Below are positions 21,359-36,076 of a stretch of DNA of 60,687 nt, in pieces (within the stretch, counting starts at the first letter, position 1; every line of letters begins with the position of its first letter). Below the pieces are notes generated by a model, which saw only the letters and a program-made list of their open reading frames with translations, made no database searches and was not told where the DNA came from. The translations under genes were made by a program, and so were the position numbers. The stretch is from Vicinamibacterales bacterium. Lineage in GTDB: Bacteria; Acidobacteriota; Vicinamibacteria; Vicinamibacterales; CAVVIG01. The DNA is taken from assembly GCA_025450765.1 (NCBI GenBank), contig JANWLS010000132.1, positions 1 to 60,687 on the forward strand, written 5' to 3'.

Positions 21359-21405
21359 ACACGGCTGTCTCCAGACTGCAGACTCCGGGCAACGGGCCCT
21401 GACAA

Positions 21406-21428
21406 GCGGCGGGCGCAGCGCCCGCCGC
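21406..21428 (+). terminator. GC hairpin after the E1 gene (10-bp stem gcggcgggcg/cgcccgccgc, loop cag). Weak U tract.
   Basis: Read directly, 48 nt after the E1 stop. The trailing sequence tcgcatgttg has few T, so the terminator call is tentative. Confidence 0.4.
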
Positions 21429-21443
21429 TCGCATGTTGCGGCG

Positions 21444-22508
21444 ATGACACGGCGCGCGCTGCTCCGGCTGGTTCTGGCGTGCGGGGTCCCTCCCCTGTCG
21501 GGCCCCTCCGCGTTCTCCGCGCCTCCGCGTGGTGCTAATCCTGTAACCTCCGCGCCTCCGCGTAGCGCCTCTCCGCGTGAGACGCTCCAGGCCGCCGGGA
21601 GTCTCCCCCCATTCATCTCCGGCGCCTTCCCCGACGCGCAGGCGTTCGCGCGGATCGCCGACGGATCCTTCTACATCTTCGATCCCCGCCAGCATGCCGT
21701 GTACGCCGTCGACGCCGCCATGCGCCGCAGCCATCGCATCGTCCAGATCGGCACGGAGCGCGGACAGATCCTGCTGCCGACGGCCTTCGCCAGCGAGCCC
21801 GACGGCACGTTTGCCGTCGCCGATACGCCCAATCGCGAGCGGATCCAGGTCTTCGCCAGCGACGGCACCTTTCTCAGTGGCTTCTTCCCGGCGGGTGCGC
21901 CCGCGTTCTCGGTGGTGCTCGATGGCCTCGCGATCGGCGGCGTCGGGTCGCTGCAGTACGACGGTCAGACGATCCTGATCAGCGAACCGGCTGGCAGCGC
22001 GCTGGTATCGGAGTATTCCGCGTCGGGCACACCGATCCGGAGCTTCGGCACCCTCCGGCCCGTCGCCTCACTCGGGCCGGACGTTGTCACGCTGCTCAAC
22101 ATCGGCCTGCCGCTGTTCGATCCGCACGGCGGATACGCGTTCGTCTTCCAGACCGGCGTCCCGCTGTTCCGCCGCTACGACAAGGACGGCCGCTTCCTGT
22201 TCGAGCGGCACATCGAGGGTCCAGAAATCGACCCGCTCGTGAACAACCTGCCGACCATCTGGCCCAGCCGCCCCCCCGGCAGTCGCGAAATCCCCGTGCA
22301 GCACCCGATCGTCCGCGCCGCGGCCTTCGATCGTCAGGGCAACCTGTGGGTCGCGTTCGTGCTGCCCGTCATCTACGTCTACAACCCGCAGGGCGAGAAG
22401 CTCCGGACCGTGCAATTGCAGACGCCGTCCGGCGTGGTCGCGGCCACGAGCTTGTTCTTCGACGGGCGGGGCCAGCTCCTCGTCACCCCCGGCTGCTACA
22501 TCTTCTAG
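21444..22508 (+). CDS. Secreted NHL/beta-propeller-repeat-like protein
   Basis: Signal-like N-terminus MTRRALLRLVLACG. Repeated blades of the type ERIQVFASDGTFLSGF and RRYDKDGRFLFE. Start chosen at ATG 21444. Confidence 0.55.
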   Translation: MTRRALLRLVLACGVPPLSGPSAFSAPPRGANPVTSAPPRSASPRETLQAAGSLPPFISGAFPDAQAFARIADGSFYIFDPRQHAVYAVDAAMRRSHRIVQIGTERGQILLPTAFASEPDGTFAVADTPNRERIQVFASDGTFLSGFFPAGAPAFSVVLDGLAIGGVGSLQYDGQTILISEPAGSALVSEYSASGTPIRSFGTLRPVASLGPDVVTLLNIGLPLFDPHGGYAFVFQTGVPLFRRYDKDGRFLFERHIEGPEIDPLVNNLPTIWPSRPPGSREIPVQHPIVRAAAFDRQGNLWVAFVLPVIYVYNPQGEKLRTVQLQTPSGVVAATSLFFDGRGQLLVTPGCYIF

Positions 22509-22539
22509 GGGTCAGATCTTGTTTCTTGCGCGGCTGTCC
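22506..22539 (+). repeat. Third (single-arm) copy of the GGGGTCAGATCTTGTTTCTTGCGCGRCTGTCC repeat, starting at the stop codon of the NHL-like gene
   Basis: taggggtcagatcttgtttcttgcgcggctgtcc matches the arms at 16211-16245 and 16271-16306. I found no complementary arm nearby. Confidence 0.75.
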
Positions 22540-22575
22540 TTCAGCGAGGACGACGCGCGATGTAAGATCATCCGG

Positions 22576-24828
22576 ATGGCTGCCGCCCAGATCCTTCATC
22601 CTTTCCGCTCTGTTGCCGTGCTCGGTGCCGGGACGATGGGAGCGCAGATTGCCGCGCATGTGGCAAACGCGGGCGTTCCAGTCCTGCTGCTCGACATCGA
22701 CGCGAAGACCGCACGCGAAGGCCTGAACCGGGCGCGCCGGCTGAAGCCGGACCCGTTCTTCACGGCCGACACGGCCGCGCTCATCGAAACGGGCGGCTTC
22801 GACACGCACCTGGCCCGACTCTCGTCCTGCGACTGGATCGTCGAAGCGGTGGTCGAGCGCCTCGACGTGAAGCGCGACCTGCTCGCGCGCGTCGACGCGC
22901 ATCGCGCAGCTGGCGCCACCATCAGCTCCAACACATCGGGCATTCCGCTCGCGGCCATTGCGGAGGGGCGATCGGACAACTTCCGCCGCTGCTGGGTGGG
23001 AGCGCATTTCTTCAATCCACCGCGATACCTGAAGCTGCTCGAAATCATCCCGACTGCAGAGACCAATTCCGCCGTTGTGGCGCGCCTCGGGGATTTCGCC
23101 GACCACTTCCTCGGCAAGGGGGTGGTCGTCGCGCGCGACACCCCGAACTTCATCGCAAATCGGATCGGCCTGTACGGCTTGATGCGCATCTTCGATGTGC
23201 TCGCCAGCGGGCGCTATACCATCGAGGAGATCGACGCGATCACCGGGCCTGCGCTCGGGCGGCCGAAGAGCGCCACCTTCCGCACGGTCGACATCACCGG
23301 CGTCGACATCGTCGGCCACGTGGCCGACAACCTGGTCGAGCGCCTCGCGGATGAGACAGAGCGTCGGGCGTTCGAGGTCCCTGCCCTGGTGCGCGACATG
23401 ATCGCGCGCGGCTGGCTCGGCGAAAAATCAGGACAGGGATTTTACAAGCGCGACCGGAAGCCGGACGGCAGCTCCGAGATCTTCACCCTCGATCCCGCTT
23501 CAATGACGTATCGCGAGCGACAGTCGCCGAAGCTGCCGGAGTTGGAGGCCGCACGGTCCATCACGAACGTGGGCGAGCGCGTGAGAGCTCTTTTTGCCGG
23601 CCGTGGACGTGTCGGCGAATTCCTGCGCGAGACGCTCGCCCCGACGCTGCTGTACACGACGGTCGTCGCGCCCTCGATTGCAAGTTCGATCGACGATGTC
23701 GATCACGCGATGCAGTGGGGCTTCGGCTGGGAACTTGGCCCGTTCGAAACCTGCGATGCGATCGGCTTTCCGGAGGGACACGGCCGCTTCCGCGAGCATC
23801 CGCTTCCACCCGCCGGGCCCGAGCTGCAGATCCTGCGTACAGCACGCGAGACCTCGCGCATCGTTCGGGCGAATGCGGCCGCCAGCCTGGTGGACCTCGG
23901 CGATGGCGTCCTCGCCGTCGATCTGCATTCCAAGATGAACGTGATCGGCGCCGACGTCGTGCAGATGTTGCAGGCGGGCGTCGAGGAGGCTGAACGCAAT
24001 TTCGCGGCACTCCTGGTCGGCACCGAGGCGGCGAACTTCTCGGCCGGTGCGAACCTCATGCTGCTGCTCCTCGAGGCCGAGGAAGGCAACTGGGACGAGA
24101 TCGACCTCATGGTCCGCACCTTCCAGCAGACGACCGCGTCGCTGCGGTACGCCCAGGTGCCGGTCATGGTCTGTCCGGCGGGGCTTGCGCTCGGCGGCGG
24201 CTGCGAGCTGGCACTGCATGCGGCGCGCGTGCAGGCGGCCGCGGAGACGTACATCGGGCTCGTCGAGGTCGGGGTCGGCCTCATCCCGGCCGGCGGCGGC
24301 ACAACCGCCATGCTGGCTCGAGCCACCGAGCACCTCACGCCCGAGCAGCAGCGAAACCTGATCAACGTCGTCAAGCCGGTGTTCGAGACGATGGCGCTCG
24401 GCAAGGTGTCGACGAGTGGACCTGACGCACGTCGCCTGGGTTATCTGAGCGAGGCGGATGGGATCACGATGAACCGCGACCGCCTGATGGCCGACGCAAA
24501 ACGGACGGCGCTCGCACTCGCCGCGGACGGTTATCATCCGCCGGCCCGGTGGACCAACATTCGCGTGGGTGGCGACGATGTGCGCGCGGCACTGACGATC
24601 GGTATCCACCTCGCATGGCGAGCCGGGCAGGCCACCGACCACGACGCAGTCATCGCGCGAGCGCTGGCGGGCATCCTGGCGGGCGGCGCGCTGCCACACG
24701 CGACGACGGTCGACGAAACGTATCTGCTCGACCTCGAGCGGGAGGCGTTCCTGCGCCTGTGCGGCGAGGCGAAAACGCGCGACCGGATCCGTTACACGCT
24801 GAAGACCGGAAAGACGCTGAGAAACTGA
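22576..24828 (+). CDS. fadN: Bifunctional 3-hydroxyacyl-CoA dehydrogenase (N-terminal) / enoyl-CoA hydratase-like (C-terminal), FadN-type
   Basis: VAVLGAGTMGAQIAAH Rossmann fold and 3HCDH domain, followed by a crotonase-like region (FSAGANLMLL...ALGGGCELAL). Start at ATG 22576; the track start at 22519 lies inside the repeat. Confidence 0.85.
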   Translation: MAAAQILHPFRSVAVLGAGTMGAQIAAHVANAGVPVLLLDIDAKTAREGLNRARRLKPDPFFTADTAALIETGGFDTHLARLSSCDWIVEAVVERLDVKRDLLARVDAHRAAGATISSNTSGIPLAAIAEGRSDNFRRCWVGAHFFNPPRYLKLLEIIPTAETNSAVVARLGDFADHFLGKGVVVARDTPNFIANRIGLYGLMRIFDVLASGRYTIEEIDAITGPALGRPKSATFRTVDITGVDIVGHVADNLVERLADETERRAFEVPALVRDMIARGWLGEKSGQGFYKRDRKPDGSSEIFTLDPASMTYRERQSPKLPELEAARSITNVGERVRALFAGRGRVGEFLRETLAPTLLYTTVVAPSIASSIDDVDHAMQWGFGWELGPFETCDAIGFPEGHGRFREHPLPPAGPELQILRTARETSRIVRANAAASLVDLGDGVLAVDLHSKMNVIGADVVQMLQAGVEEAERNFAALLVGTEAANFSAGANLMLLLLEAEEGNWDEIDLMVRTFQQTTASLRYAQVPVMVCPAGLALGGGCELALHAARVQAAAETYIGLVEVGVGLIPAGGGTTAMLARATEHLTPEQQRNLINVVKPVFETMALGKVSTSGPDARRLGYLSEADGITMNRDRLMADAKRTALALAADGYHPPARWTNIRVGGDDVRAALTIGIHLAWRAGQATDHDAVIARALAGILAGGALPHATTVDETYLLDLEREAFLRLCGEAKTRDRIRYTLKTGKTLRN

Positions 24829-24865
24829 GCCCGTGGTGGCCTAACGGGAATTCACCGAATCCCCC

Positions 24866-25516
24866 ATGTCCGATCGCATCCATCAAATCACCGGCTCCGC
24901 CGGTCCCCTCGAAGTGCTGCTCGACGAACCGGTGGGTCGTGAGCCCGGCCAGGCGCCGCGCGCCGCGGTCGTCCTCGGCCATCCACATCCGCTGTATGGC
25001 GGGACGATGCACACGAAGGGGTTGTACCAAGCGGCGAAGGGACTGAGCCGGATTGGCTGTGCGGTGCTGCGATTCAATTTCCGCGGCGTTGGCAAGAGTG
25101 CCGGCACCTTCGACAACGGCCCGGGCGAGATGGACGACTTCCGGTCCGGCCTCGAGCTCATGTCGAACCGTTATCCCGGCGCGCCGCTCTGGGCTGGTGG
25201 ATTTTCGTTCGGCTCGTGGATCGGCCTCACCGTCGGCGCGGCCGACGATCGCGTCTCGGCGCTCATCGGCATCGCCCCACCGCTCGAGAAATACGACTTC
25301 TCGGCGCTCAAGGACAGCGCGAAGCCGAAGTTCTTCATCCAGGGCGAGCGCGACGAGATCTGCCCGCTGAAGGTGCTGCGGCAGTTCTACGGCCAGCTGC
25401 TCGAGCCGAAGGAGATGGTCGTCATCGATGGGGCCAATCACCTGTTCGACGGCCAGGCGAGCCAGGTCGGAGATGCGATCGAGGAACTGCTGAGCGACTA
25501 CCCCTCGGGTGCCTGA
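24866..25516 (+). CDS. Alpha/beta hydrolase (COG2945-like)
   Basis: HPHPLYGGTMHTKG, nucleophile elbow GFSFGS, and C-terminal ANHLFDG. Confidence 0.75.
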   Translation: MSDRIHQITGSAGPLEVLLDEPVGREPGQAPRAAVVLGHPHPLYGGTMHTKGLYQAAKGLSRIGCAVLRFNFRGVGKSAGTFDNGPGEMDDFRSGLELMSNRYPGAPLWAGGFSFGSWIGLTVGAADDRVSALIGIAPPLEKYDFSALKDSAKPKFFIQGERDEICPLKVLRQFYGQLLEPKEMVVIDGANHLFDGQASQVGDAIEELLSDYPSGA

Positions 25517-25648
25517 CGCCCGGTTCAGCGCATCGCACGCGGCGCTGGACGCCGACCGGCTGGCGGACATATCATCCGCGCCGAGAGGTGCCCGACCCGC
25601 TTCCACAGCTTTGCGCATCTTGAACAATCTCACAGAGGCAACCAGCGC

Positions 25649-26638
25649 ATGAATCGCAGACAGTTCGTCCAGGGCTCGGCGGCCGCGTTCATCGCCTCCC
25701 GCCTGCCGCATCTCGCCGCCCAGACCTCGGCGGCGCCCCAGGTGAAGATGATTCGGACGCAGGTGCTCGAGATCGGCTATCACGAGTACGGCGATCCGTC
25801 AGGCTTCCCCGTCATCCTGCTGCACGGATTCCCGGACGACGCGCATGCGTACGATGGCGTCGGCCCGGCGCTCGCGAAGGCTGGTTACCGCGCGCTGGCC
25901 GTATACCTCCGCGGATACGGACCGACGCGATTTCTGGATCCGGCCGCGCCGCGCACGGCGGAACAGGCGGCGATTGGACAGGACGTCATCGACCTCGCCG
26001 ACGCGTTGCACCTGGAGCGATTCGCCGTCTCCGGCTTCGATTGGGGCGGCCGCGCCGCCTGCATCGCCGCCGCGCTCCATCCCGATCGCGTGCGAGCCGC
26101 CGTGCTGGTGGGCGGCTATTCGATTCAGGACACCATCGATCCGCCCCGCGCGATGCCGCCGGAAGCCGCGCGCCGGTCCTGGTATCAGTGGTACTTCAAC
26201 ACCGAGGCCGGGCAAATCGGTCTGGAGCAGACACGCCGGCCGCTGTGCGAGTTGCTGTGGCGGGAATGGTCGCCGACCTGGCATTTCAGCGAGGAGATGT
26301 ACAGCCTCACGGCCGCATCCTTCGAGAATCCCGACTTCGTCGGCTGCGTCATCCACTCCTATCGCCATCGGCATCGGAACGCGCCCGGCGAGCCGCGGTT
26401 CCTGGAAACGGAGCGGCAACTCGCCAGGCGGCCGCCGATCACCGTACCGACGATCGTCCTCCACGGCGGAGACGACGCATTCGGGCATCCGGCGGCGGAG
26501 ATCACGGCCGGGGATCGCAAAACCTTTCCGCACCTCGTCGACAAGCGCATCGTCGATGGCGCGGGGCATTTCGTGCCGCACGAAAAACCCGAGGCGGTGA
26601 CGACGGCGATCATCGACGTGCTGGGCGCCACGAAGTAA
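25649..26638 (+). CDS. Tat-exported alpha/beta hydrolase, epoxide hydrolase/haloacid dehalogenase-like (Asp nucleophile)
   Basis: Twin-arginine signal MNRRQFVQGSAAAF. HGFPDD oxyanion motif, GFDWGG nucleophile, and C-terminal GAGHFVPHE. Confidence 0.75.
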   Translation: MNRRQFVQGSAAAFIASRLPHLAAQTSAAPQVKMIRTQVLEIGYHEYGDPSGFPVILLHGFPDDAHAYDGVGPALAKAGYRALAVYLRGYGPTRFLDPAAPRTAEQAAIGQDVIDLADALHLERFAVSGFDWGGRAACIAAALHPDRVRAAVLVGGYSIQDTIDPPRAMPPEAARRSWYQWYFNTEAGQIGLEQTRRPLCELLWREWSPTWHFSEEMYSLTAASFENPDFVGCVIHSYRHRHRNAPGEPRFLETERQLARRPPITVPTIVLHGGDDAFGHPAAEITAGDRKTFPHLVDKRIVDGAGHFVPHEKPEAVTTAIIDVLGATK

Positions 26639-26718
26639 GTCGCGCGGCTTCGAACGCGTCTGAGCTTGACAGCATGCGGCGTCGGCATCATGCTGCTCGG
26701 ATTCAAAGGGAGCGTCCG

Positions 26719-27324
26719 ATGGCAGATAGTCCAGCAGTCGGTCAGTTACTAGCGCAGGCGGCGGTCGATCGGGGGGTGGCGGCGCGCCTGATCGAGAACC
26801 CTCGGGCGCAGTTGTCCCAGGCCGGCGTCGATCTACCGTCGACGATCGCCGTGCACGTGTACAAGAACGACGCGACGACCATGCACGCCGTGCTGCCGGT
26901 GGAGATGCCGGGCGAGCTCGACGCGGCACGCCGGGTGAATCCGACGGCCGCCAAGGTCTTCGAGCGTGCGTGGCGAGACGCGGCGTTCAAGAGCCGTCTC
27001 ATGGCGTCGCCGCGGCAGGCCTTCGTCGAAACCACCGGCCTCACGCCTCCCTCGTCGCTGAAACTCGTCGCACACGAGAACACGCCGACGTCGATCAACC
27101 TGGTCATTCCGTACATTCCGACGAGCGAGTTGAGTGACGCGGATCTCGAGCGGGTCGCCGGCGGCAAGGGCGACAGCGGCTGCAGCACAAGCGTACAGGT
27201 GGGCTACTCGCTGGTGGGCGCAGCGCCGGAAGTCGCCGCGGCGAACCTGGGAGTCGGCGGTGCCGTAGGGGCCGTGGGGGCGTTGACGATGCTCGGCGGC
27301 GGCCTCGCGTCTGCCTTCAAATAG
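26719..27324 (+). CDS. RiPP-like precursor with two tandem NHLP (nitrile-hydratase-alpha-like) leader domains, a VAGG double-glycine site and a 52-aa Gly/Ala-rich core
   Basis: The NHLP pattern ERAWRDAAFKSRLMASPRQAF...LKLVAHENTPTSINLVIP...ELSDADLERVAGG is preceded by a second, similar copy. AAAGGGA lies 7 nt before the ATG. The 427-aa track ORF is an upstream artefact. Confidence 0.75.
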   Translation: MADSPAVGQLLAQAAVDRGVAARLIENPRAQLSQAGVDLPSTIAVHVYKNDATTMHAVLPVEMPGELDAARRVNPTAAKVFERAWRDAAFKSRLMASPRQAFVETTGLTPPSSLKLVAHENTPTSINLVIPYIPTSELSDADLERVAGGKGDSGCSTSVQVGYSLVGAAPEVAAANLGVGGAVGAVGALTMLGGGLASAFK

Positions 27325-27333
27325 GGCTCGACC

Positions 27334-28041
27334 ATGGATCTGAAGAGTGCAAAGGTGCTGGTGACTGGTGGCAGCTCCGGGATCGGGCTCGCCACCGCCC
27401 AGCACTTCACGACGTTGGGCGCACGGGTTGCCATCTGCGGCCGCAAGGGCGACAGGCTGAACGCAGCGGCGAAGGCGACCGGCGCGGTCCCGATTGTCGC
27501 CGACGTGAGCCAGGAAGCGGATGTCGTACGGTTGATCGAAACGGCCGTTCGCGAGCTCGGCGGGTACGACACGCTGATCAACAACGCCGGTTTCGGCCGC
27601 TTCGCGCCGCTTCTCGAGATGAGCGCCGACGACTTCCGGCGCGTGTGGGAAACGAATGTGCTCGGCGCCATGCTCGTCGCGCGCGAGTCGGCGCGCCATT
27701 TCGTGAGCCAGCGCCGCGGCAACATTGTCAACGTCGCCTCGACGACGTCGCAGCGCGCTGGCGCGACCAGCTCCGCGTATGCCTCCAGCAAGTTCGCGCT
27801 CGCAGGACTCACGCAGGTGTGGCGGGCCGAGTTGCGCCAGCACAACGTGCGCGTGATGCAGATCAACCCGAGTGAAGTGCTCACCGGGTTCCGCGCCAAC
27901 TCCGGCCGGCCATCACACGCGGAGAATCCGACAAAGCTCCACGCGGACGATATCGCGCAGGTGATCGCGAGCATGCTCGCGCTCGACGACCGCGGGTTCA
28001 TCACCGACGCCACGGTGTGGGCGACCAACCCCAGCGATTGA
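27334..28041 (+). CDS. Classical SDR family oxidoreductase
   Basis: TGGSSGIG, NNAG and YASSK motifs. Starts 9 nt after the precursor stop. Confidence 0.85.
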   Translation: MDLKSAKVLVTGGSSGIGLATAQHFTTLGARVAICGRKGDRLNAAAKATGAVPIVADVSQEADVVRLIETAVRELGGYDTLINNAGFGRFAPLLEMSADDFRRVWETNVLGAMLVARESARHFVSQRRGNIVNVASTTSQRAGATSSAYASSKFALAGLTQVWRAELRQHNVRVMQINPSEVLTGFRANSGRPSHAENPTKLHADDIAQVIASMLALDDRGFITDATVWATNPSD

Positions 28042-28046
28042 GACCG
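28008..28046 (+). repeat. Direct repeat copy 1 (39 bp): the last 10 codons plus stop of the SDR gene, plus 5 nt
   Basis: cgccacggtgtgggcgaccaaccccagcgattgagaccg. Matches 30448-30486 at 38 of 39 positions. Confidence 0.9.
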
Positions 28047-28182
28047 TCAGCGTGCCGCCTCGATCTCCTGCCGGGTGATCGGGCCGACGGTCCGTTCGAT
28101 GATGTCTCGCGGCCCGGTTCCTCCTCAGTTGATCGGCGGCTCGGAGTTGACTCGAGAGCGATAACGATAACGGAGGCGCGCC

Positions 28183-29547
28183 ATGGATGCTGCACAGCTG
28201 CGAGGACGTTTTCGGGGAGAGATCGTCGAACCGGGCGACGCCGGATACGATGACGCGCGAAAGGTGTACAACGCGATGATCGACCGGCGTCCGCGCCTCA
28301 TCGCGCGATGCCGCGACGCGGGAGACGTCATGACGGCCGTCAATTTCGGGCGTGAGCACACGCTGCTCACGGCGATTCGCGGCGGCGGGCACAACGGCGG
28401 CGGCCTGGGGATCTGCGACGACGGCCTCGTCATCGATCTCTCGGGGATGAAGGGGATCCGTGTCGACCCTGCCGCGCGCACCGTGCGTGTCGAGGGCGGC
28501 TGCACGGGCGGCGAGATGGATCACGCGACGCATGCCTTCGGCATGGCAACGCCGGGCGGCACCGTGTCGACGACGGGCGTGGCCGGCCTGACGCTGGGCG
28601 GTGGCATCGGGCACCTGACGCGACCCTGCGGCCTGGCCATCGACAACCTGCTCGAGGTGGACGTCGTACTCGCCGACGGCCGGTTCGTGACGGCCAACGC
28701 GCAGGAACATGCCGACCTGTTCTGGGCAGTCCGAGGCGGCGGCGGCAACTTCGGCGTCGTCACCTCCTTCCTCTTCCGCCTGCACCCGGTCGCCACGGTG
28801 AGCGCGGGACCGACCTTCTGGCCGATCGAGCAAACGCCAGAGGTCCTGAGCGCCTATCAGACGTTCATCCTCGAAGCGCCCGAGGACGTCAGCGGCTTCT
28901 TCGCGTTCCTGACGATCCCGCCTGTGCCGCTCTTCCCGCCGGAGCTCCACGGCCGGAACGTGTGCGCGGTGATCTGGTGCTCGACGGCCGCGCCGGAGAG
29001 AGCGGACCAGGCGACACGAAAGATGCGGTCGGTCGGCACGCCGCTCCTCGATCACGTCGGACCGATGCCGTTTCCGGTGCTCCAGAGCCTCTTCGATCCG
29101 CTGCTGCCACCTGGCCTGCAATGGTACTGGCGCGCGGACTTCGTGAAGTCGTTCAGCGCCGAAGCCATCCGCACGCATCTGGAGCAGGCCTCGAAGGCGC
29201 CCGCCGGCGCGTCACAGGCTCACATCTATCCGATCAACGGAGCTGTGCACCGCGTGGGGGCGACCGACACGGCGTTCAGCTACCGCGATGCCAATTTCGC
29301 ACTCGTGATCGTCGGCGTGGATCCGGATCCTTCCAACAGGGAGACGATTACGAAGTGGTGCAAGGACTACTTCGACGCCGTGCATCCATATTCCGCGGGC
29401 GGCGCTTACGTGAATTTCATGATGGAGGAAGGCCAGCCGCGCGTGAAGGCGGCCTTCCGGGACAACTACGACCGCCTCGCACGCGTGAAGAAGACGTACG
29501 ATCCGACGAACTTCTTCCGCGTGAATCAGAACATCCAGCCGGCGTAA
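28183..29547 (+). CDS. FAD-linked oxidase with BBE-like C-terminus
   Basis: FAD_binding_4 pattern (AIRGGGHNGGG, IDLSGMKGIRVD) and BBE end YVNFMMEE...YDPTNFFRVNQNIQP. ACGGAGG RBS. Confidence 0.85.
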   Translation: MDAAQLRGRFRGEIVEPGDAGYDDARKVYNAMIDRRPRLIARCRDAGDVMTAVNFGREHTLLTAIRGGGHNGGGLGICDDGLVIDLSGMKGIRVDPAARTVRVEGGCTGGEMDHATHAFGMATPGGTVSTTGVAGLTLGGGIGHLTRPCGLAIDNLLEVDVVLADGRFVTANAQEHADLFWAVRGGGGNFGVVTSFLFRLHPVATVSAGPTFWPIEQTPEVLSAYQTFILEAPEDVSGFFAFLTIPPVPLFPPELHGRNVCAVIWCSTAAPERADQATRKMRSVGTPLLDHVGPMPFPVLQSLFDPLLPPGLQWYWRADFVKSFSAEAIRTHLEQASKAPAGASQAHIYPINGAVHRVGATDTAFSYRDANFALVIVGVDPDPSNRETITKWCKDYFDAVHPYSAGGAYVNFMMEEGQPRVKAAFRDNYDRLARVKKTYDPTNFFRVNQNIQPA

Positions 29548-29659
29548 GCCGTCCTGCGCCGCGCGCGTCGTGCCGGCCCGGGCCGTGGCTGGGACCACGG
29601 ATTAAACGTCGAACGTCCTGCAGGGGTCCAAGAGAACAGATTCACTTTTGGAGGCCTGC

Positions 29660-30154
29660 ATGAAAACGATGGGACGATCGGGGCGCATACCGGTGTTGGT
29701 AGCCATTTTCGCGATGCTCGCGCTGGTGCCAGTGGCCTGGGCGCAAGGGCCGGGCGGGCGCAGGGGGCAAGGCGTCGGGCCGGGTCTGATGGCGATGGCA
29801 CCCGGCGTGTTCCTGCCGCTCAGGGCTGCCCAGCTGACCAACGTGCAGCAGCAGCAGGTGCAATCGTTGATGAGCCAGTTCCGGAAAACGTGGCAGCCAC
29901 AGCTTCAGCCGGCGATGCGGGCGCTTGCCGATGCGATCAAAGCGACGCCGGCTGATGCAGACACCATCCGCGCGCGCAGCGCCGACCTGGCCGCCATTCA
30001 GGCGAACGCCGCGGTCGCCGGTGCGGACTTGCGCGCGCAGATTCTCGCGCTCCTCACGCCCGACCAGCAGCAGCGTGTGCTGCAGTTCGAGGCACAAATG
30101 GAACAGCGGCGCGCCTCGCGCCATCCGTCGAACGGACCGGGCGGCGGCCGCTGA
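29660..30154 (+). CDS. Periplasmic LTXXQ-motif (Spy/CpxP family-like) protein
   Basis: Signal peptide ...AMLALVPVAWAQ and two LTxxQ motifs (LTNVQQQQV, LTPDQQQRV). GGAGG lies 5 nt before ATG 29660. Confidence 0.7.
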   Translation: MKTMGRSGRIPVLVAIFAMLALVPVAWAQGPGGRRGQGVGPGLMAMAPGVFLPLRAAQLTNVQQQQVQSLMSQFRKTWQPQLQPAMRALADAIKATPADADTIRARSADLAAIQANAAVAGADLRAQILALLTPDQQQRVLQFEAQMEQRRASRHPSNGPGGGR

Positions 30155-30160
30155 GCTTCT

Positions 30161-30370
30161 TCACTTCTTCCGGCTGGACGAGCGTTTCTTCGTCGACCGC
30201 TTGCGAGGCACTTTCGCGCCGGCCTTTCTCGCTTCAGAAAGGCCGATCGCGATCGCCTGCTTGCGGCTGGTGACGCGCTGGCCAGACCGGCCGCTCTTGA
30301 GCGTGCCATGCTTTCGCTCGCGCATGGCACGCGCCACTTTCTTCTGCGCCTTCTTTCCGTACTTAGCCAT
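30161..30370 (-). CDS. Small, highly basic protein (DUF6496-like)
   Basis: 69 aa: MAKYGKKAQKKVARAMRERKHGTLKSG...RKQAIAIGLSEARKAGAKVP, with a Lys/Arg/Ser tail. Start at ATG 30370. Confidence 0.6.
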   Translation of the reverse strand: MAKYGKKAQKKVARAMRERKHGTLKSGRSGQRVTSRKQAIAIGLSEARKAGAKVPRKRSTKKRSSSRKK

Positions 30371-30447
30371 GGTTCCGCGCAGGTGCAAAACGTGCGCCAC
30401 GCCGCTGCGCTTCAGGTGATGCGCGCCACGGCCACCAGGCGCACATC

Positions 30448-30486
30448 CGCCACGGTGTGGGCGACCAATCCCAGCGATTGAGACCG
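30448..30486 (+). repeat. Direct repeat copy 2: an orphan duplicate of the SDR 3' end (would encode ...ATVWATNPSD-stop), 4 nt from the patatin-like gene stop
   Basis: cgccacggtgtgggcgaccaatcccagcgattgagaccg. One C/T difference from copy 1. Confidence 0.9.
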
Positions 30487-30490
30487 CCTC

Positions 30491-33187
30491 TCAGGCTTGC
30501 ACCGCAGCGGATCGTGACCATCGCCTGAAGAACGCGGACAGATCGCCATCCACGGCGTACGAGGCGGCCATCTCGTGCACCGAGTGCAGGCCGAGCATCC
30601 GGTAGCTCTCGAACTGCGCCTCATCGAACCATTGGTTCGCCGTCGATTCGTGCGGAAACGCTGGGTGGCTCTTGCCGTAGTTGATCACGTCGATCGGTTC
30701 CCGCCCGCAGAGTGTCGCCTTCAGGTAGATGAGGACCCCGTCCTCCGCCTCGGGACCATCCACCTCGCGATACAAAATCCTGGCAGCCGCGGCGTGCGGG
30801 TTTCCGTTCCCCTGATGCGCCGCATCGATCGGGCAGCCATCGTCGAACACAATCGGGATGCCCAGGTCGATGCGGATCTGCCGAATGGCCGTCGCGAGAT
30901 CGTCGAACGTGTAGGAGGGATCGCAGCTCGCGTCACTCACGAGCACGTACCGGCATCGCCGGAGCACCATCTGATACAGCCCGAGGTTCTCGAAATGCCC
31001 GCCGTCGGACAGGTAGACGTAGGGGCTCCTGTCGGTCGTCAGGCCGAGCATCTCGCGCAGGATCGGCGCCGCGTCGAGTCTCGGCTCGGTGCTCCGCCAG
31101 GTGCGCCTTCCGGCCGTGCCCGGATTTCCCAGCCAGATCCCCAGCCGCGCATTGAACAGCGTCAGTAGAAACGTCAGCGCGGGCGTCGAAAACGCACCCA
31201 TGTTCGGGCTGGCCGCGGCGCCTGAAATCGTGATCGCCGTCCCGAGCGAGAGGCCGCCGCCCCCGGCGCGGCGGGCCGCCGCGTACTCGTCGGCCGGTCG
31301 GTAGCCGAGTCCGTCCGACGCCGAACCCACATGGAGCGGAGTCGCGGTGAACGACTCCGCCTTGCGGTGCAGGCGCCCGTGCGCGGCCTGGGCGATCTTG
31401 TCGAGCGTCATATTGACCACCAGAAATGGCCGCGCAATGACCTTCAACTCAGCCAGGCTCACGTCGTCGGCGGGATCGAAACCCGTGAACGGGTTCGGAT
31501 GCCGGCGGCGACCGGGACGCGAGGCGCCGAGGAAGCTTCGGATCAGCCGGTTCCGGTACATGCCGTGGAGCGAGAACTTGTTCACGGGGACGAACACGCC
31601 CATCAGCATGCCAAACACGAGGTAGACGGCGGCCAGGAGGCTCGCCTCGCGAAGGATGCTGTCGCTGCCGCAGGCGGCGACAGCCGACAGACCGGCGCTG
31701 GCAAAGCCACCATGAATTCGCGCGATCGCCCACTCGTTGAGCCAGGAGAGCGACGATAACAACAGCACCGCGAACGCCGGCGCCGCCAGCCCAAAGGCGA
31801 GGCGCCGCCCAACCGGCGCGCGGCCTTCTCCGACACGCCCGATCGATCGCCCGAGGACCGCGGCCGCGGCTCCGAGCACCGACGTGATGACCGGAATCGC
31901 GGCGGCGGCATGCCCCGGTGTCAGACCAAGGACATCCCGCAGCACGCCTCGTATCATCCGGAGCAACACCGGCCCCTGAAAGACGACCAGTCCGATGAGC
32001 AGCCAGACGACGCCGACCATGAGGAACCAGGCGACGCTGCGGCTCCACCACTCGAGATCCGCGTCATCCATGTCGCTGCCGGCGACGCCCATGAAGACGA
32101 ACGCGCCCGCCATCAGGACGGCCACGAAGAGAGGAAAGGCGGTCGTCACGTAGATCGGTCGGCAGGCGGCGCCCTTCAGCAGCACCGCGAGCCACGTCAG
32201 TCCTGCCATGGCCACGGCACCGGAAATCACGCCGGCCAGAATGGTCTGTGGACGCCACCGGCGTTGGCCGGATAACGGGCCCGCCAACGTCCAGAGTGCA
32301 CCGTGCATCAGTGCCCCCAGCAGGACCAAGTCGATCACACGGTTCCCGCCGGCGCGGCTGGCGGCGACGAGGACCGTCAATCCGATAAGGCTCGCGCAGA
32401 ACGGAAGCAGGTTGAACAGCAGCACCTTATGGGGGCCCGACTGCCGGTCGCCATAGCTGGGGAGGTTGAGCAGCGCGAACAGCGTGCCTCCGAGCAACAA
32501 GGCTGCGCTGACGGAAAAGATGATCGATGCCGGATCCCCGAGGCGATCGGTCGCACCGATCGCGAGCGGCTGATAGAGATCCTGCACGACGCCGAAATAG
32601 ATCACCGGGAGGAGCAGTCCGGCGGCGACGAGCGGCAGAAGGACGAGCCAGTTGAGAAACAGGTTTCGGGCGACGATCGCCACGAGCGTCCAGACGTCCG
32701 CCGAAAGGAAACCGGTCGCCGGGCTCATGAAGCGGCTGCAGGCGCGGAAGCTGGCGACAGGCTCCGGCTCCGGTGGTCCGTCTGCGCAGGGATCGCGGCG
32801 CAGCTCGTCGAACGGCGATGGCACCTCGGGATCGCGCGTCGCCTGGTGCAGCCAGCCAGTCAGCCACCCACCGGTGTAACCGCCGCCCGACACGGTCGAA
32901 AGATAGTCGAATCCGCGCAGGAGATCGTGGCGAGCCAGGCCCTGAATGACGCCGAGCGCGAAGCTGGCGCTTCGAATGCCTCCGCCCGACAGGCAGAGTG
33001 CCGCGTAGGCATTCCGATGTCGCTCGGCAATATGGGCGCGTTGCCGCGCCTCCGCGCCGACGGTCGTCTCCGGTGCGGCGCCTGCGACCGGTGTCGCGAT
33101 GCCGCGCATCTGTCGGTGCTCGGCTTCGAGTACGTCCAGCAGCGAGAGCGGCGGCTCGTCGTCCGGCCGGGATGTCGTGAGTGGCAC
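30491..33187 (-). CDS. Patatin/cPLA2-like lipase with a large polytopic membrane insertion between the catalytic Ser and Asp
   Basis: 898 aa, GTG start. Oxyanion motif SGGGIRS (aa 67-73), nucleophile STVSGGGY (Ser100), about ten hydrophobic helices (aa ~150-545), LSDGGHFENLG (Asp728), and C-terminal FPHESTANQWFDEAQFESYRMLG. Confidence 0.8.
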   Translation of the reverse strand: MPLTTSRPDDEPPLSLLDVLEAEHRQMRGIATPVAGAAPETTVGAEARQRAHIAERHRNAYAALCLSGGGIRSASFALGVIQGLARHDLLRGFDYLSTVSGGGYTGGWLTGWLHQATRDPEVPSPFDELRRDPCADGPPEPEPVASFRACSRFMSPATGFLSADVWTLVAIVARNLFLNWLVLLPLVAAGLLLPVIYFGVVQDLYQPLAIGATDRLGDPASIIFSVSAALLLGGTLFALLNLPSYGDRQSGPHKVLLFNLLPFCASLIGLTVLVAASRAGGNRVIDLVLLGALMHGALWTLAGPLSGQRRWRPQTILAGVISGAVAMAGLTWLAVLLKGAACRPIYVTTAFPLFVAVLMAGAFVFMGVAGSDMDDADLEWWSRSVAWFLMVGVVWLLIGLVVFQGPVLLRMIRGVLRDVLGLTPGHAAAAIPVITSVLGAAAAVLGRSIGRVGEGRAPVGRRLAFGLAAPAFAVLLLSSLSWLNEWAIARIHGGFASAGLSAVAACGSDSILREASLLAAVYLVFGMLMGVFVPVNKFSLHGMYRNRLIRSFLGASRPGRRRHPNPFTGFDPADDVSLAELKVIARPFLVVNMTLDKIAQAAHGRLHRKAESFTATPLHVGSASDGLGYRPADEYAAARRAGGGGLSLGTAITISGAAASPNMGAFSTPALTFLLTLFNARLGIWLGNPGTAGRRTWRSTEPRLDAAPILREMLGLTTDRSPYVYLSDGGHFENLGLYQMVLRRCRYVLVSDASCDPSYTFDDLATAIRQIRIDLGIPIVFDDGCPIDAAHQGNGNPHAAAARILYREVDGPEAEDGVLIYLKATLCGREPIDVINYGKSHPAFPHESTANQWFDEAQFESYRMLGLHSVHEMAASYAVDGDLSAFFRRWSRSAAVQA

Positions 33188-33313
33188 GATGCGTCCGATG
33201 TGCCCTCACTATAAGCCAATTCGGGCGCACTGAACGGCCCGCCGGCTCCGGCTTCCTTCTGACCATCTGAATCCGCGAGCTCGAGATCGCGCTCGAGCGC
33301 CCGCCGCTCGCTC

Positions 33314-33841
33314 TCAGCGCCTGGGATTGTCTCTGGCGTACACGTCCAGACGGTAGGTCTTGAAAAGGAAGGGCTCTGGCTGCTTCTGCTCGCCCAGTCG
33401 CAGGGCCACCGCTGCCGAGCGTGTGTTGTCCGGATGGATGATGCTGATCGCCCGCGGCCAGCGCAGCACGGTAAAGGCATACTCCATCGCCGCCGCGGCG
33501 GCCTCGGTCGCGTACCCCTTTCCCCACGCGTCGCGAGCCAGCGCCCACCCGATCTCATGATCGGGCCAGCCTTCCGGATAGTTCGGGCCCACGCGGCCGA
33601 TGAAGCGGCCGCTCGTCTTCTCGACGACGGCCCACATCCCGAAGCCGCGCATCAGCCAATGGCCCATGGCATAGGCCATGGTGCGCCAGGCGTCCATCCG
33701 GTCCTGCGCCTTCTGATCCAGCGTGATGAAACGGGCGACCTCGGGATCGGCCATCATCGCCGCAAAGGCGTCGAAGTCGGCCGGTTCCATCGCTCTCAGG
33801 AGCAGGCGCGGCGTTTCAAGAGGCGGAGCATCCATGTGCAT
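33314..33841 (-). CDS. GNAT family N-acetyltransferase (RimJ/RimL-like)
   Basis: ETPRLLLRAMEPADFDAF..., HEIGWALARDAWGKGYATEAA and ISIIHPDNTRS motifs. Confidence 0.8.
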   Translation of the reverse strand: MHMDAPPLETPRLLLRAMEPADFDAFAAMMADPEVARFITLDQKAQDRMDAWRTMAYAMGHWLMRGFGMWAVVEKTSGRFIGRVGPNYPEGWPDHEIGWALARDAWGKGYATEAAAAAMEYAFTVLRWPRAISIIHPDNTRSAAVALRLGEQKQPEPFLFKTYRLDVYARDNPRR

Positions 33842-34355
33842 CGAGTATCATTTTGGCATGCCGCTGCTGCTGATGCTGCTCACGATTGCGATCGGCGCCG
33901 CCGGTCCACCATCGACAACAACGGTGGTGCTGGTGCGCCATGCCGAGCGGCAGGGGACGATGACGGCCGATCCGCCGCTCTCGCCTGCGGGCCTGGCGCG
34001 GGCGCAGCGGCTCGCGGCGCTCTTCGGCGAGACGCACGGCAACGGGCGAATCGATACCATCTATGTCACCGACACGCGCCGTACCCAGCAGACGGCGGCG
34101 CCGCTCGCGGCCGATCTCCACGAGCGTCCGATCGTCATGCCCGCCGGCGACGTCGCCGGCCTGGCCTCGCGGGTGCTACGCGACAACCGCGGCCAGCACG
34201 TCCTCATCGTCGGCCACAGCAACACGGTGCCCGAGCTCGTGCATGCGCTGAGCGGCCTCACCGTCGATCCGATCAGCGACGGGGACTACGAGAACATCTA
34301 CATCGTGACGATCCCGTCGAACGGACCCGCGACGCTGCTGCACCTGCGGTATTGA
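33834..34355 (+). CDS. Histidine phosphatase (phosphoglycerate mutase/SixA-like) family protein with N-terminal signal or anchor
   Basis: VVLVRHAERQG (RHG-type motif) and LIVGHSNTVPEL. Start is ATG 33834 or ATG 33858. The track start at 33723 overlaps the GNAT gene. Confidence 0.7.
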   Translation: MCIEYHFGMPLLLMLLTIAIGAAGPPSTTTVVLVRHAERQGTMTADPPLSPAGLARAQRLAALFGETHGNGRIDTIYVTDTRRTQQTAAPLAADLHERPIVMPAGDVAGLASRVLRDNRGQHVLIVGHSNTVPELVHALSGLTVDPISDGDYENIYIVTIPSNGPATLLHLRY

Positions 34356-34388
34356 GCCGCCTCACCGTTCGAGCCGGACGCGTCGTCT

Positions 34389-35999
34389 CTACTCGCCAAC
34401 GACCGGCTGCTCGTAGTGTGGCTTCTTCATAATCCAGACGAACGGAATCGCCGCGGCCAGCAGCGCCGCCATCACGCGGAATCCATCCAGGTAGCTCATC
34501 GCCACCGCTTCGCGGACGACTTCACCATAGATGCCCGCGAAGGCCTCGGTGCCCGCGTGCGTGAGGGCCTGGCCCTGCGCCGCGAGGTAATGCTGCAGCT
34601 CCGCGACCGCCTGTGAAAAGAGGCGCGGGTGCAGACCCATGTCGCCGACGAGCTGGACCTGGTGGAACTGGGCGCGACGGTCGACGAACGCCGTGAAGAG
34701 CGAAATGCCGAAGCCCGCGCCGAGGTTGCGGGCCAACCCGATCAGGCTCGTCGCATAGCCCATTTCGTGCTGCGGAATGGGATCGACCGTAATGGTGGCC
34801 AGCGGTACGAACAAGAAGGACAGGCCGGCGCCCATGATCAGCTGGGGCCACAGGAAGCTCCATGGGCCCGCGTTCAGATCCAGGAACGAGAACATATAGG
34901 CGCCGATCGCCCCGACCAGCAGGCCGCCGCTCAGGAGCGCGCGCATGTCCCAGCGCCGCCCGATCAGGAACCCGGCGATCGGCATGAAGATGAGCGTGGC
35001 GATGCCGCGCGGAGAATTCCAGATGCCTGCCGTCACAGCCGGGAAGCCCAGCAGCGTCTGCATGAAGAGCGGCAGCAGCACGATGCTGCCGTACAACGCG
35101 AAGAACAGCGCCATCGACAGTGATGTCCCCGTCGCGAACGTGCGGTGGCGGAGCAGGTCGAAATGCACGACCGGGTCGCGTGTGCGCAGCTCCCACCAGA
35201 TGAAGGCGACGAGCCCCACCGCCGCGATGATGCTCATCGCCACGATGAAATGCGAGCCGAACCAGTCGTCCTCCTGCCCCTTGTCGAACACCACCTGCAG
35301 GGAGGCGATGCCGATCGCGAGCAGCCCCATGCCCCAGTAATCGATGTGTCCGGTGCCGCGCCGAATATATGGCGGATCGAAGACGAAGGTCTGGACGAGG
35401 AACAACGCGGCCAGGCTGACGGGGATGTTGATGAAGAAGATCCATCGCCAGGAGTAGTCGGTCGTCAACCAGCCGCCGAGAATGGGCGCGACGATCGGGG
35501 CGACGACGATGCCGACGCCCCAGAGCGCCATCGCATGGCCTCGCTCCTCGCGCGGAAACGTCTCGAGCATGATCGCGCGTGTGGTCGGCTGCAGCGACCC
35601 GCCGGCCGTGCCCTGCAGGACGCGGAAGAAGACGAGCATCGGCAGGTTGGGCGCAATCCCACAGAGCACGCTGGCCGAGGCGAACCCCACGACGGCCATC
35701 ATCAACAGCCGCTTGCGCCCGAAATAATTCGCGAGCCACCCGGAGAGCGGCAGGATGACCGCGTTCGCGACGAGGTACGACGTGAGCACCCAGGTCGCTT
35801 CATCCACGGATGCGGAAAGGTTTCCCGCGATGTAGGGCAGGCTGACGTTGACGGCCGAGGTATCCACCAGCTCCATCACCGCGCTCATCATCACGGCCGC
35901 GGCGATCAGCCAGCGCATCGTCTTGTCGGCCACGCCGACATCGAAGGCGGCCGCGGCGGGGTTCGGCGGTGGATGCTGGGGGGAGTCAGCGGAAGGCAC
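34389..35999 (-). CDS. DHA2 (EmrB/QacA) family MFS drug:H+ antiporter, 14 TM
   Basis: LVDTSAVNVSLPYIAGNL, GWLANYFGRKR and many TM helices. Start uncertain: GTG 35999, GTG 35933 and ATG 35918 are all in frame, and none has a clear SD. Confidence 0.85.
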   Translation of the reverse strand: MPSADSPQHPPPNPAAAAFDVGVADKTMRWLIAAAVMMSAVMELVDTSAVNVSLPYIAGNLSASVDEATWVLTSYLVANAVILPLSGWLANYFGRKRLLMMAVVGFASASVLCGIAPNLPMLVFFRVLQGTAGGSLQPTTRAIMLETFPREERGHAMALWGVGIVVAPIVAPILGGWLTTDYSWRWIFFINIPVSLAALFLVQTFVFDPPYIRRGTGHIDYWGMGLLAIGIASLQVVFDKGQEDDWFGSHFIVAMSIIAAVGLVAFIWWELRTRDPVVHFDLLRHRTFATGTSLSMALFFALYGSIVLLPLFMQTLLGFPAVTAGIWNSPRGIATLIFMPIAGFLIGRRWDMRALLSGGLLVGAIGAYMFSFLDLNAGPWSFLWPQLIMGAGLSFLFVPLATITVDPIPQHEMGYATSLIGLARNLGAGFGISLFTAFVDRRAQFHQVQLVGDMGLHPRLFSQAVAELQHYLAAQGQALTHAGTEAFAGIYGEVVREAVAMSYLDGFRVMAALLAAAIPFVWIMKKPHYEQPVVGE

Positions 36000-36076
36000 G
36001 AAGACTGATCTTACGCCACGTCGCCCGATCCAGCCCGTCAACGGCCGTTCGTGCACAATGGATGCAGGAATCTCGT

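Follow-up and report, generated by a model that had tools for sequence, protein, structure and literature searches.

A duplicated gene end in a small genomic island of a soil acidobacterium: a possible scar of stepwise, recombinase-independent growth

The island and its repeat pair

The stretch of DNA analysed here (60.7 kb of a Vicinamibacterales genome, referred to below as the window) carries a lineage-specific island which splits a conserved beta-oxidation gene cluster (FadB-like/abhydrolase/thiolase/acyl-CoA dehydrogenase). Two other loci, L181 and L182, are syntenic with positions 14213-25516 and 37724-43551 of the window (57-88% amino acid identity), and in both of them abh1 is followed directly by the thiolase gene (with a gap of 48 nt in L182). 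The island genes encode abh2, an NHLP precursor, a short-chain dehydrogenase (SDR), a FAD oxidase, an LTXXQ protein, a DUF6496 protein, a patatin-like protein, a GNAT protein, a histidine phosphatase (HisPhos), an MFS transporter and an amino-acid permease; no repeats were found at the outer edges of the island. The features considered below are the following.

25517-37723, no strand: lineage-specific island, 12.2 kb, 11 genes
27334-28041, plus strand: SDR gene, xenolog
27934-28041, plus strand: recombinant SDR 3' tract, 108 nt, containing copy 1
28008-28046, plus strand: copy 1 (R1), the last base of a codon, 10 codons, the TGA stop (28039-28041) and 5 nt; functional SDR 3' end
28047-30447, no strand: segment A, 2.4 kb, between copy 1 and copy 2
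28183-29547, plus strand: FAD/BBE oxidase (Pfam FAD_binding_4+BBE), segment A
29660-30154, plus strand: LTXXQ protein (Pfam Metal_resist/LTXXQ), segment A
30161-30370, minus strand: small basic protein (Pfam DUF6496), segment A
30448-30490, plus strand: copy 2 (R2), orphan SDR 3' end of 39 nt (30448-30486) followed by CCTC
30491-34350, no strand: segment B, 3.9 kb, with the patatin-like, GNAT and histidine phosphatase genes
30491-33187, minus strand: patatin-like protein, 898 aa, segment B
33314-33841, minus strand: GNAT, segment B
33834-34355, plus strand: histidine phosphatase, segment B
34351-34363, plus strand: R3, possible third partial copy, 13 nt (ATTGAG-CCGCCTC), overlapping the HisPhos stop and lying 33 nt before the MFS stop
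34389-35999, minus strand: MFS transporter gene (Pfam MFS_1), counterpart of the convergent SDR neighbour in L183

Copies 1 and 2 are direct repeats of 39 nt, identical at 38 positions, and correspond to the last 10 codons of the SDR gene, its stop and 5 further nt. This description, given already in the first-pass annotation, holds in the window and in contigs of the same population, and the Pfam assignments bear out the three genes that it had named between the copies. The single mismatch (C at 28029, T at 30469) distinguishes AAC from AAT, both Asn codons. Its polarity is ambiguous: T, as in copy 2, occurs in L183 and the aligned Gemmatimonadaceae loci, and C, as in copy 1, in L184 and in several of the more distant SDR orthologs (L013, L016, L017 and L018). 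With up to three mismatches allowed, the two copies are the sole matches in the window, and the chance expectation for a 39-nt repeat is 0 (100 dinucleotide shuffles). The repeat lengthens to 39/41 if one more mismatch is accepted. Its edges are sharp, with local alignment scores of the flanks on both sides not exceeding those of shuffles. Copy 2 lies within no credible gene; it occupies part of the 120-nt spacer that runs from the patatin stop to the DUF6496 start, and only CCTC separates it from the stop codon of the convergent patatin gene (30491-30493), as had been noted from the outset.

The junction between the SDR and FAD oxidase genes was found in nine further contigs of the population (a tenth contig with the SDR gene, L006, stops 20 nt beyond the FAD oxidase start codon), and the junction DUF6496-copy 2-patatin in three; copy 2 is present and identical in L011, L098 and L099. 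The junction contigs are about 99.9% identical and retain both copies, the C/T difference included, and the repeat is fixed in all 13 independent contigs of this population. Since these junctions recur in contigs from different samples, an assembly artefact can be dismissed as the source of the 39-nt repeat.

Two other accounts were rejected: that the 38/39 match stems from the SDR 3' end being generally conserved in its nucleotides (as a conservation window, this end ranks 115 of 226), and that copy 2 is the tail of a longer, degenerate SDR pseudogene, since alignment scores upstream of it stay at the level of shuffles. A peptide-like reading frame following copy 1 (28047-28121) has no match in any locus retrieved. 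The window contains no other long, high-identity direct repeats bracketing genes; the only other repeat of comparable kind is an unrelated 32-nt hairpin element. These data support the view that copy 2 is what remains of an SDR 3' end and marks a junction at which the region downstream of the SDR gene gained DNA. The repeat is a neutral scar without a function of its own, rather than a functional element.

Origin of the SDR gene and the earlier gene order

The SDR protein is 83-86% identical (amino acids) to those of Gemmatimonadaceae, L183 and L184, and only about 55% identical to the SDR homolog of a Vicinamibacterales locus (L037). In Gemmatimonadaceae the gene has a conserved context, downstream of DinB_2 and convergent with NIF3, and DNA homology to these loci is confined to the region from about the ATG to about 10 nt beyond the SDR stop. 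No window neighbour was found near any SDR ortholog of species-level relatives, which shows the gene to be a cross-phylum xenolog, acquired from a Gemmatimonadaceae-like source. Its close homologs (83-86%) occur in at least four contexts (beside NIF3, MFS, an unrelated plus-strand gene and the FAD oxidase). A gene that remains constant beside varying neighbours fits the need of a homology anchor.

The 3' end of the SDR gene is a recombinant tract: identity to L184 is 98% over the last 108 nt, vs 82% over the first 600 nt. The breakpoint is placed at gene position 600 (maximum chi-square 18.2, permutation p = 0.002), and mismatches to L184 at third codon positions number 2/36 in the tract vs 65/200 elsewhere (P = 1.2e-4). 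No relative other than L184 shows this pattern. The tract reaches to within 5 nt of segment A. It could nevertheless reflect an unrelated gene conversion, or a transfer in the opposite direction, because the gene downstream of the SDR gene in L184 differs from that of the window.

The one informative relative is L183, the only one that shares two genes of this neighbourhood. There, the SDR and MFS genes are convergent, with 4 nt from stop to stop, and the product of the downstream gene shows 77-78% amino acid identity to the C-terminal 190 residues of the window MFS protein. In the window the two genes are 6.3 kb apart, with MFS downstream, and segment B is absent between them in L183. The adjacency in L183 shows that the SDR and MFS genes once stood tail to tail, an order that this relative has kept, and that 6.3 kb were added in the window as two segments, A and B. 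The first-pass annotation had proposed that the SDR and patatin genes were once directly convergent; since the SDR partner in L183 is MFS and not patatin, such a junction was at most an intermediate. Its proposal of an insertion at the SDR 3' end stands in so far as DNA was added downstream and copy 2 marks the joint, but it has to be extended from one module to two segments. The empty site that it recommended seeking was absent from JGI metagenome contigs, where the exact pattern (left flank of copy 1-repeat-right flank of copy 2) had 0 matches; L183 is an empty-site-like arrangement, with MFS in place of patatin and at a greater distance than the population.

The three genes of segment A cannot be regarded as one conserved module, contrary to the initial interpretation: at none of 80 FAD-oxidase homolog loci is an LTXXQ, DUF6496, patatin or SDR ortholog adjacent, and the three SDR-family matches near these homologs are only 22-27% identical. 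The best homologs of the patatin-like protein are only 66% identical and have a different gene context. A foreign composition of segment A, segment B or the island was rejected on GC, GC3, codon usage and tetranucleotides. The comparison of GC3 and codon usage with the flanks, suggested in the first-pass annotation, revealed no anomaly in segment A, which resembles the core in these respects as well as in tetranucleotides. A plasmid or phage origin was also rejected; the FAD oxidase gene alone has DNA matches of 65-70%, on megaplasmids.

A possible trace of the second joint is R3. The last 14 nt of 30448-30490 (ATTGAGACCGCCTC) are common to R2 and R3, and the exact 13-mer of R3 is unique in the window. 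The local alignment of R3 with the region of copy 2 scores 23, which was reached by 16 of 5000 shuffles (p about 0.003) and by 16 of 3192 genomic tiles, the true copies included. It is suggestive, though not proven, that R3 is a third copy marking the joint between segment B and the MFS gene. The island is a patchwork, to which A and B were added as two segments, with copy 2 marking the joint between them.

Two further explanations may be weighed against these data. A local rearrangement could have produced the repeat by tandem duplication over the SDR end and the module, with subsequent loss of most of the second copy; in a variant, an SDR gene next to patatin gave rise to a copy 2.4 kb upstream, after which all but 39 nt of the original were deleted. 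Tandem duplications and their decay are common, the native-like composition of segment A fits an origin within the genome, and the SDR gene is clearly a relocated gene in this lineage. However, two or three events with coincident end points would be required, the DNA upstream of copy 2 contains nothing else derived from the SDR gene, and the SDR/MFS adjacency in L183, the R3 remnant and the recombinant 3' tract would all be left unexplained. We therefore consider the two variants, even taken together, improbable. We attach equally little probability to an ectopic short patch (SPDIR), according to which the present gene order predates the repeat and is unrelated to it. As outlined in a preprint, SPDIR involves the integration of ectopic single strands at microhomologies, which yields microindels that vary widely in size and sequence (bioRxiv 10.1101/2023.11.22.568220). 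One such event would leave sharp edges and require no recombinase, but the patch would have had to hit a segment boundary precisely and by coincidence, at a distance of 4 nt from a stop and in the orientation and register of an old junction between the SDR gene and its neighbour. There is also no clear microhomology at the edges (by eye), and R3 and L183 are not accounted for.

Proposed growth of the island by homology-facilitated illegitimate recombination

With a confidence just short of even, we propose that the 39-nt repeat is a junction scar of the stepwise, recombinase-independent growth of a small genomic island, in a manner resembling homology-facilitated illegitimate recombination (HFIR), a term in use for such recombination during the uptake of foreign DNA (e.g. 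PMC8116780, PMC6382021). Donor DNA from a relative would have contained an SDR allele closely resembling the resident one, with other genes downstream of it. Homologous recombination would have occurred inside the resident SDR gene, at about gene position 600, while an illegitimate joint would have linked the far end of the donor DNA to the resident chromosome at a point 34 nt ahead of the SDR stop. The product would comprise, in this order, the 5' part of the resident SDR gene, the donor SDR 3' tract with copy 1, segment A, the last 39 nt of the resident gene (copy 2) and the previous downstream DNA. An illegitimate joint placed inside the anchor gene would thus duplicate the gene end and keep the SDR gene intact. 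A second event of this kind, before or after the first, may have brought in segment B, with the 13-14-nt overlap (R2/R3) as its trace.

A crossover tract in the anchor, adjoining the insert, is provided by the last 108 nt of the SDR gene, which points to homologous recombination anchored in this gene together with an illegitimate joint. A single HFIR event would account for both the crossover tract and the separate 39-nt duplication. The small size of the segments, their ordinary genes and their native-like composition also argue for HFIR-like growth, unequal duplications (39 and about 14 nt) are as expected for illegitimate joints, and the position of a lineage-specific island within a syntenic core is consistent with stepwise addition. 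HFIR products typically have a few nt of microhomology at the illegitimate joint, which here would be recognisable from the donor sequence; homology at the joint does not extend past 39 nt.

Several observations count against this reading. The donor order SDR-FAD oxidase-LTXXQ-DUF6496 was not found outside the population in a limited sample of 80 FAD-oxidase and about 30 SDR loci. Copies 1 and 2 differ at one of 39 positions, where about 3-4 differences would be expected if the alleles had diverged like the rest of the gene (P(<=1) about 0.13, a rough estimate). We know of no natural transformation or other route of DNA entry in Vicinamibacterales. R3 is short. Finally, two insertions within a few nt of each other are also expected of a site-specific system.

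In such a system, A and B would be decayed or trans-mobilised integrative elements (CIME-like), integrated successively at an att site over the SDR stop, with R1, R2 and R3 as attL, internal att and attR, and with the recombinase located elsewhere or lost. We regard this as doubtful, although the direct repeats at both ends, of which R1 is the SDR 3' end, have the form expected of an integrative element, and all three junctions have ATTGAG(A)CCG in common as a core at the SDR stop. Integration at a gene 3' end by elements that bring a replacement end with them is classic, as are tandem arrays with repeats of that end as boundaries, and some such arrays lack integration genes (PMC5704250; PMC3146451). 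Here, however, no cognate tyrosine or serine recombinase, transposase, integrase, excisionase or relaxase, nor any remnant of integration or transfer functions, was found in the island or among the genes of the 60-kb window scanned or annotated, and the contig annotations contain none of these recombinase and mobility gene families; this agrees with the absence of recombinases and terminal inverted repeats reported in the first-pass annotation. The segments measure just 2.4 and 3.9 kb and contain ordinary genes that are unlinked elsewhere, the target is an accessory xenolog and not a conserved gene, and the repeats are unequal in length (39 vs about 14 nt). None of 21 SDR ortholog loci carries a second copy of its own 3' end, which, together with the lack of an empty-site allele in the JGI contigs, gives no sign of recurrent use of the site in related genomes. 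Moreover, the 108-nt recombinant tract would be unexplained, because copy 2 keeps only 39 nt. Nothing thus speaks for the integrase-driven att mechanism originally favoured; the outcome that the first-pass annotation had named as refuting it (no empty site, and the repeat absent from relatives) is what is seen at the population level. It is very unlikely, too, that a recombinase elsewhere in Vicinamibacterales genomes recognises the SDR-stop core (ATTGAGACCG) and repeatedly loads small recombinase-free modules. If true, this would represent trans-acting module accretion at an accessory gene 3' end, unlike integrons (no attC) and classical islands (no resident integrase).

Transposons are recognised by a transposase, terminal inverted repeats and a target-site duplication of 2-14 bp. 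A transposon or insertion sequence was rejected here: there is no transposase, the segment ends carry no inverted repeats, and the 39-nt duplication is far longer than those generated by transposases. An integron cassette array was likewise rejected. The attC sites of integrons, which follow each cassette, are imperfect hairpins, about 60-120 nt long and bearing R''/R' core sites, and CALINs are clusters of attC sites without an integrase. No attC-like hairpins were detected; the island spacers fold no better than shuffles (z-scores from -1.05 to +1.78), and the 39-mer contains no GTTRRRY/RYYYAAC pair at attC spacing (by eye).

Significance and comparison with known systems

The locus is a natural record of a small genomic island built stepwise in an uncultured soil acidobacterium. 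The SDR xenolog seems to have acted as a portable anchor of homology, and two successive additions at its stop codon left scars from which the steps can be reconstructed. The locus is a neat instance, from nature, of a known process, most likely one in which ordinary recombination rather than a dedicated mobile element was at work. HFIR is well established in the laboratory; we are not aware of a documented case in wild genomes in which the anchor tract and the joint are both visible. If the HFIR reading is right, the locus offers a useful worked example; if the site-specific one is, it points to an undescribed system with a recombinase acting in trans.

Among known systems, integron cassettes and CALINs resemble the locus in their tightly packed, gene-sized units without a recombinase within the units, but differ from it in their attC hairpins; here, moreover, the repeat falls within coding sequence, and gene orientations are mixed. 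The locus is also similar to arrays in which integrative elements and cis-mobilizable elements (CIMEs) accrete in tandem at a target gene's 3' end (PMC5704250), for example the tandem ssrA genomic islands of Dehalococcoides, where 20-bp repeats of that gene's 3' end form the boundaries (PMC3146451): direct repeats of a gene 3' end bound successive downstream segments, the gene stays intact, and some segments lack integration genes. In contrast to these arrays, the present locus has neither an integrase nor mobility remnants, its target is an accessory protein-coding xenolog, its repeats are unequal, its site is not used in related genomes and its segments are far smaller than typical islands.

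HFIR was reportedly shown experimentally in Acinetobacter baylyi and Streptococcus pneumoniae, by de Vries and Wackernagel (2002) and Prudhomme et al. (2002). Unlike these cases, the present one is natural, with an unsampled donor; the joint lies inside the anchor gene, so that the last 39 nt were duplicated instead of recipient DNA being deleted, and this seemingly happened twice at the same gene end. What the locus shares with HFIR is the combination of one homologous anchor (the SDR gene, with its tract of about 108 nt) and one illegitimate joint, formed without a recombinase, and inserts that are small and composed of ordinary genes.

The 39-nt repeat and the added segments

We confirmed that the 39-nt direct repeat is not an artefact. 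The features in question, in forward-strand coordinates, are as follows.

27334-28041, SDR gene (adh_short, E = 5e-52)
28008-28046, copy 1 (R1): 3' end of the SDR gene, its stop and 5 nt
28047-30447, segment A: FAD oxidase, LTXXQ and DUF6496 genes
30161-30370, minus strand, DUF6496 gene (segment A)
30448-30486, copy 2 (R2): in the 120-nt spacer from the patatin-like stop to the DUF6496 start
30491-33187, minus strand, patatin-like gene (segment B)
30491-34350, segment B: patatin, GNAT and HisPhos genes
34389-35999, minus strand, MFS transporter gene (partner of the SDR gene in locus L183)

The two copies are identical at 38/39 positions; at up to three mismatches the window contains no further match (0 expected by chance), and alignment of both sides revealed homology above chance beyond the repeat in neither flank. 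The SDR-FAD oxidase junction was assembled independently in nine further contigs of the same population from other samples, as was the junction at copy 2 in three (~99.9% identity in each case); the C/T difference between the copies is fixed across all of them. Nucleotide conservation of the SDR 3' end is nothing unusual (rank 115/226 windows), which rules it out as the source of the 38/39 identity. The copies therefore share a recent common origin. As a scar of insertion, the repeat is genuine and neutral. The alignment and the independent assemblies thus uphold the two copies described in the first-pass annotation, which was also correct in placing the end of copy 2 4 nt before the patatin stop and in listing a FAD/BBE oxidase (FAD_binding_4/BBE), an LTXXQ (Metal_resist) protein and a small basic protein, identified here as DUF6496, between the copies.

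Segments A and B of the added DNA meet at copy 2. The idea that the genes of segment A form a conserved module was rejected, as none of the 80 loci of FAD-oxidase homologs (58-80% identity) carried an LTXXQ, DUF6496 or patatin gene or an SDR ortholog nearby; the three SDR-family matches near them are only 22-27% identical. The best patatin homolog (66% identical) lies in an unrelated context.

Two other observations were made within segment A. The region 29551-29952, covering the spacer between the FAD oxidase and LTXXQ genes and the LTXXQ signal-peptide region, is a divergence hot spot at the population level (21 differences, including a 6-nt indel, in ~400 bp, versus ~0.05% elsewhere). It occurs as two haplotypes among contigs of the same population, which suggests local recombination import. 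Directly after copy 1, the minus strand of 28047-28121 reads GGTGPRDIIERTVGPITRQEIEAAR-stop (GC3 ~0.88, hand count); this frame, with no matches in the loci compared, may be a relic 3' end of a convergent gene brought with segment A.

The 12.2-kb island

Two relatives with long contigs (L181 and L182) are syntenic with 14213-25516 and 37724-43551 of the window (57-88% amino-acid identity). In both, the thiolase gene directly follows the abhydrolase gene abh1 (with a gap of 48 nt in L182); in the window they are separated by 12.2 kb carrying 11 genes (25517-37723). The cluster of FadB-like, abhydrolase, thiolase and acyl-CoA dehydrogenase genes (22519-24828 and 37724-40730), contiguous in these contigs, is thus split here. 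Near their FadB-like gene they also carry TetR and an additional abhydrolase, and their acyl-CoA dehydrogenase is followed by DUF1684-HAD-transglutaminase genes; the window has none of these.

Outside the island, the window consists of core chromosome, with a dcw cluster and beta-oxidation genes among its contents. No repeats were found at the outer edges of the island. As the first-pass annotation had noted, no integrase or transposase is visible, whether in the island or in the remainder of the window genes that were scanned or annotated. Its suggestion of comparing composition with the flanks disclosed no anomaly: GC3 in the island is 0.79-0.88 (~0.85 in the core), with tetranucleotide distances inside the null range. 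Except for the FAD oxidase gene taken by itself, nothing in the stretch is related to plasmids or phages.

Between two convergent genes, the 32-nt element GGGGTCAGATCTTGTTTCTTGCRCGRCTGTCC is present as a hairpin pair of 97% complementarity (16214-16245 and 16271-16302). A third copy (22508-22539) lies immediately upstream of the FadB-like gene start; the element resembles a dispersed repeat of the REP/MITE type. An NHLP-family (nitrile-hydratase-leader) RiPP precursor gene (26719-27324) ends 9 nt upstream of the SDR start. It looks orphaned or served in trans, since the other island genes contain no Pfam families typical of RiPP maturation.

Origin and likely older arrangement of the SDR gene

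The proteins of a sister MAG (GCA_036554065.1) are named Vicinamibacterales at NCBI, and the nearest named relatives of the FadB-like and patatin genes are Acidobacteriota or Vicinamibacterales. The SDR, in turn, is 83-86% identical to those of several Gemmatimonadaceae MAGs, where its context is conserved (DinB_2-SDR-> <-NIF3 <-hybrid kinase), and just ~55% identical to its homolog in a Vicinamibacterales locus (L037). None of the window genes flank SDR orthologs in species representatives, and DNA homology to the Gemmatimonadaceae loci covers the ORF alone (~ATG to ~10 nt past the stop). Together these data make it a cross-phylum xenolog. The 83-86% identical SDRs (L183, 1371-2085; L184, 360-1130; L092-L097) have at least four unrelated gene contexts between them, and the homology extends no more than ~10-20 nt beyond the ORF on either side. 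Among soil Gemmatimonadaceae-like and Vicinamibacterales genomes, this one gene appears to move, or to be swapped, as a unit.

The two closest non-identical SDRs are found on short Logan contigs, L183 and L184. In L183 (SDR 85% identical in amino acids), the stop of a convergent gene lies 4 nt after the SDR stop; the last 190 residues of its product are 77-78% identical to the window MFS transporter, and the C-termini are of equal length. The corresponding stops are 6.3 kb apart in the window; most parsimoniously, SDR-> <-MFS came first and 28047 to ~34350 is a later addition. The original partner of the SDR gene would thus be the MFS gene and not, as first proposed, the patatin gene; the empty junction SDR-R-patatin predicted by that proposal was absent from JGI metagenome contigs.

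At the joint of segment B and the MFS gene, overlapping the HisPhos stop, lies ATTGAG-CCGCCTC (R3, 34351-34363), a 13-mer unique in the window, which matches the end of copy 2 and the next four bases (ATTGAGACCGCCTC, 30477-30490). Its local alignment score was reached by just 16/5000 shuffles, and R3 is probably a third partial copy. The resulting pattern, R1 = [a b], R2 = [a b c] and R3 = [b c], would be expected if a single ancestral SDR terminus had received two insertions in succession and part of it had been duplicated each time. The core idea of an insertion at the SDR 3' end that duplicated this end holds; in place of a single module, the setting is a 12-kb mosaic island with at least two additions.

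Mechanism of insertion

Comparison with L184 (86% amino-acid identity) revealed that nt 1-600 of the window SDR gene are 82% identical and nt 601-708 are 98% identical, with 2 mismatches and the last 63 bases the same (breakpoint test, p = 0.002). Third-codon-position mismatches number 2/36 in the tract versus 65/200 elsewhere (P = 1.2e-4). The last 108 nt, which contain copy 1 and abut segment A, thus have a history other than that of the rest of the gene. The homology with L184 ends at the stop codon, and no other relative has a similar tract.

We favour homology-anchored illegitimate insertion, resembling homology-facilitated illegitimate recombination (HFIR). Incoming DNA in which a similar SDR allele preceded segment A would have crossed over homologously near SDR position 600, and an illegitimate joint would have linked its far end to the resident chromosome, 34 nt short of the SDR stop. 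The outcome of this single event would be an intact SDR gene with a donor-like 3' tract, then segment A, then the last 39 nt of the resident gene, orphaned. Such an origin agrees with the missing recombinase, the ordinary nature of the cargo, the duplications of unequal length (39 versus ~14 nt) and the non-recurrence elsewhere. With four or more different neighbours among close relatives, the SDR is a plausible shared anchor. The HFIR-like reading has its weak points: the donor arrangement (a similar SDR, then segment A) was found in none of the loci sampled, the downstream gene of L184 differs, copy 2 is nearer to copy 1 than two diverged alleles should be (estimated probability ~0.13) and R3 is short.

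Local duplication followed by deletion, or an ectopic patch of the SPDIR type, would call for additional events or coincidences, and neither accounts for L183 or R3. The main rival, site-specific tandem accretion of CIME-like (cis-mobilizable) elements (as defined in PMC5704250) at an att core located on the SDR stop, accounts for the core common to the three joints, but has no positive evidence for a recombinase or recurrence, and gives no reason for a recombinant tract (108 nt) that exceeds the duplicated end (39 nt) in length. A second copy of the gene's own 3' end was present at 0/21 SDR ortholog loci, and the island spacers contain no attC-like hairpins. The evidence leans towards recombinase-independent recombination rather than the att-like integration first envisaged. 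The closest analogues for site-specific accretion are the ssrA islands of Dehalococcoides (PMC3146451). As a whole, the locus neatly illustrates a process of a kind already known.
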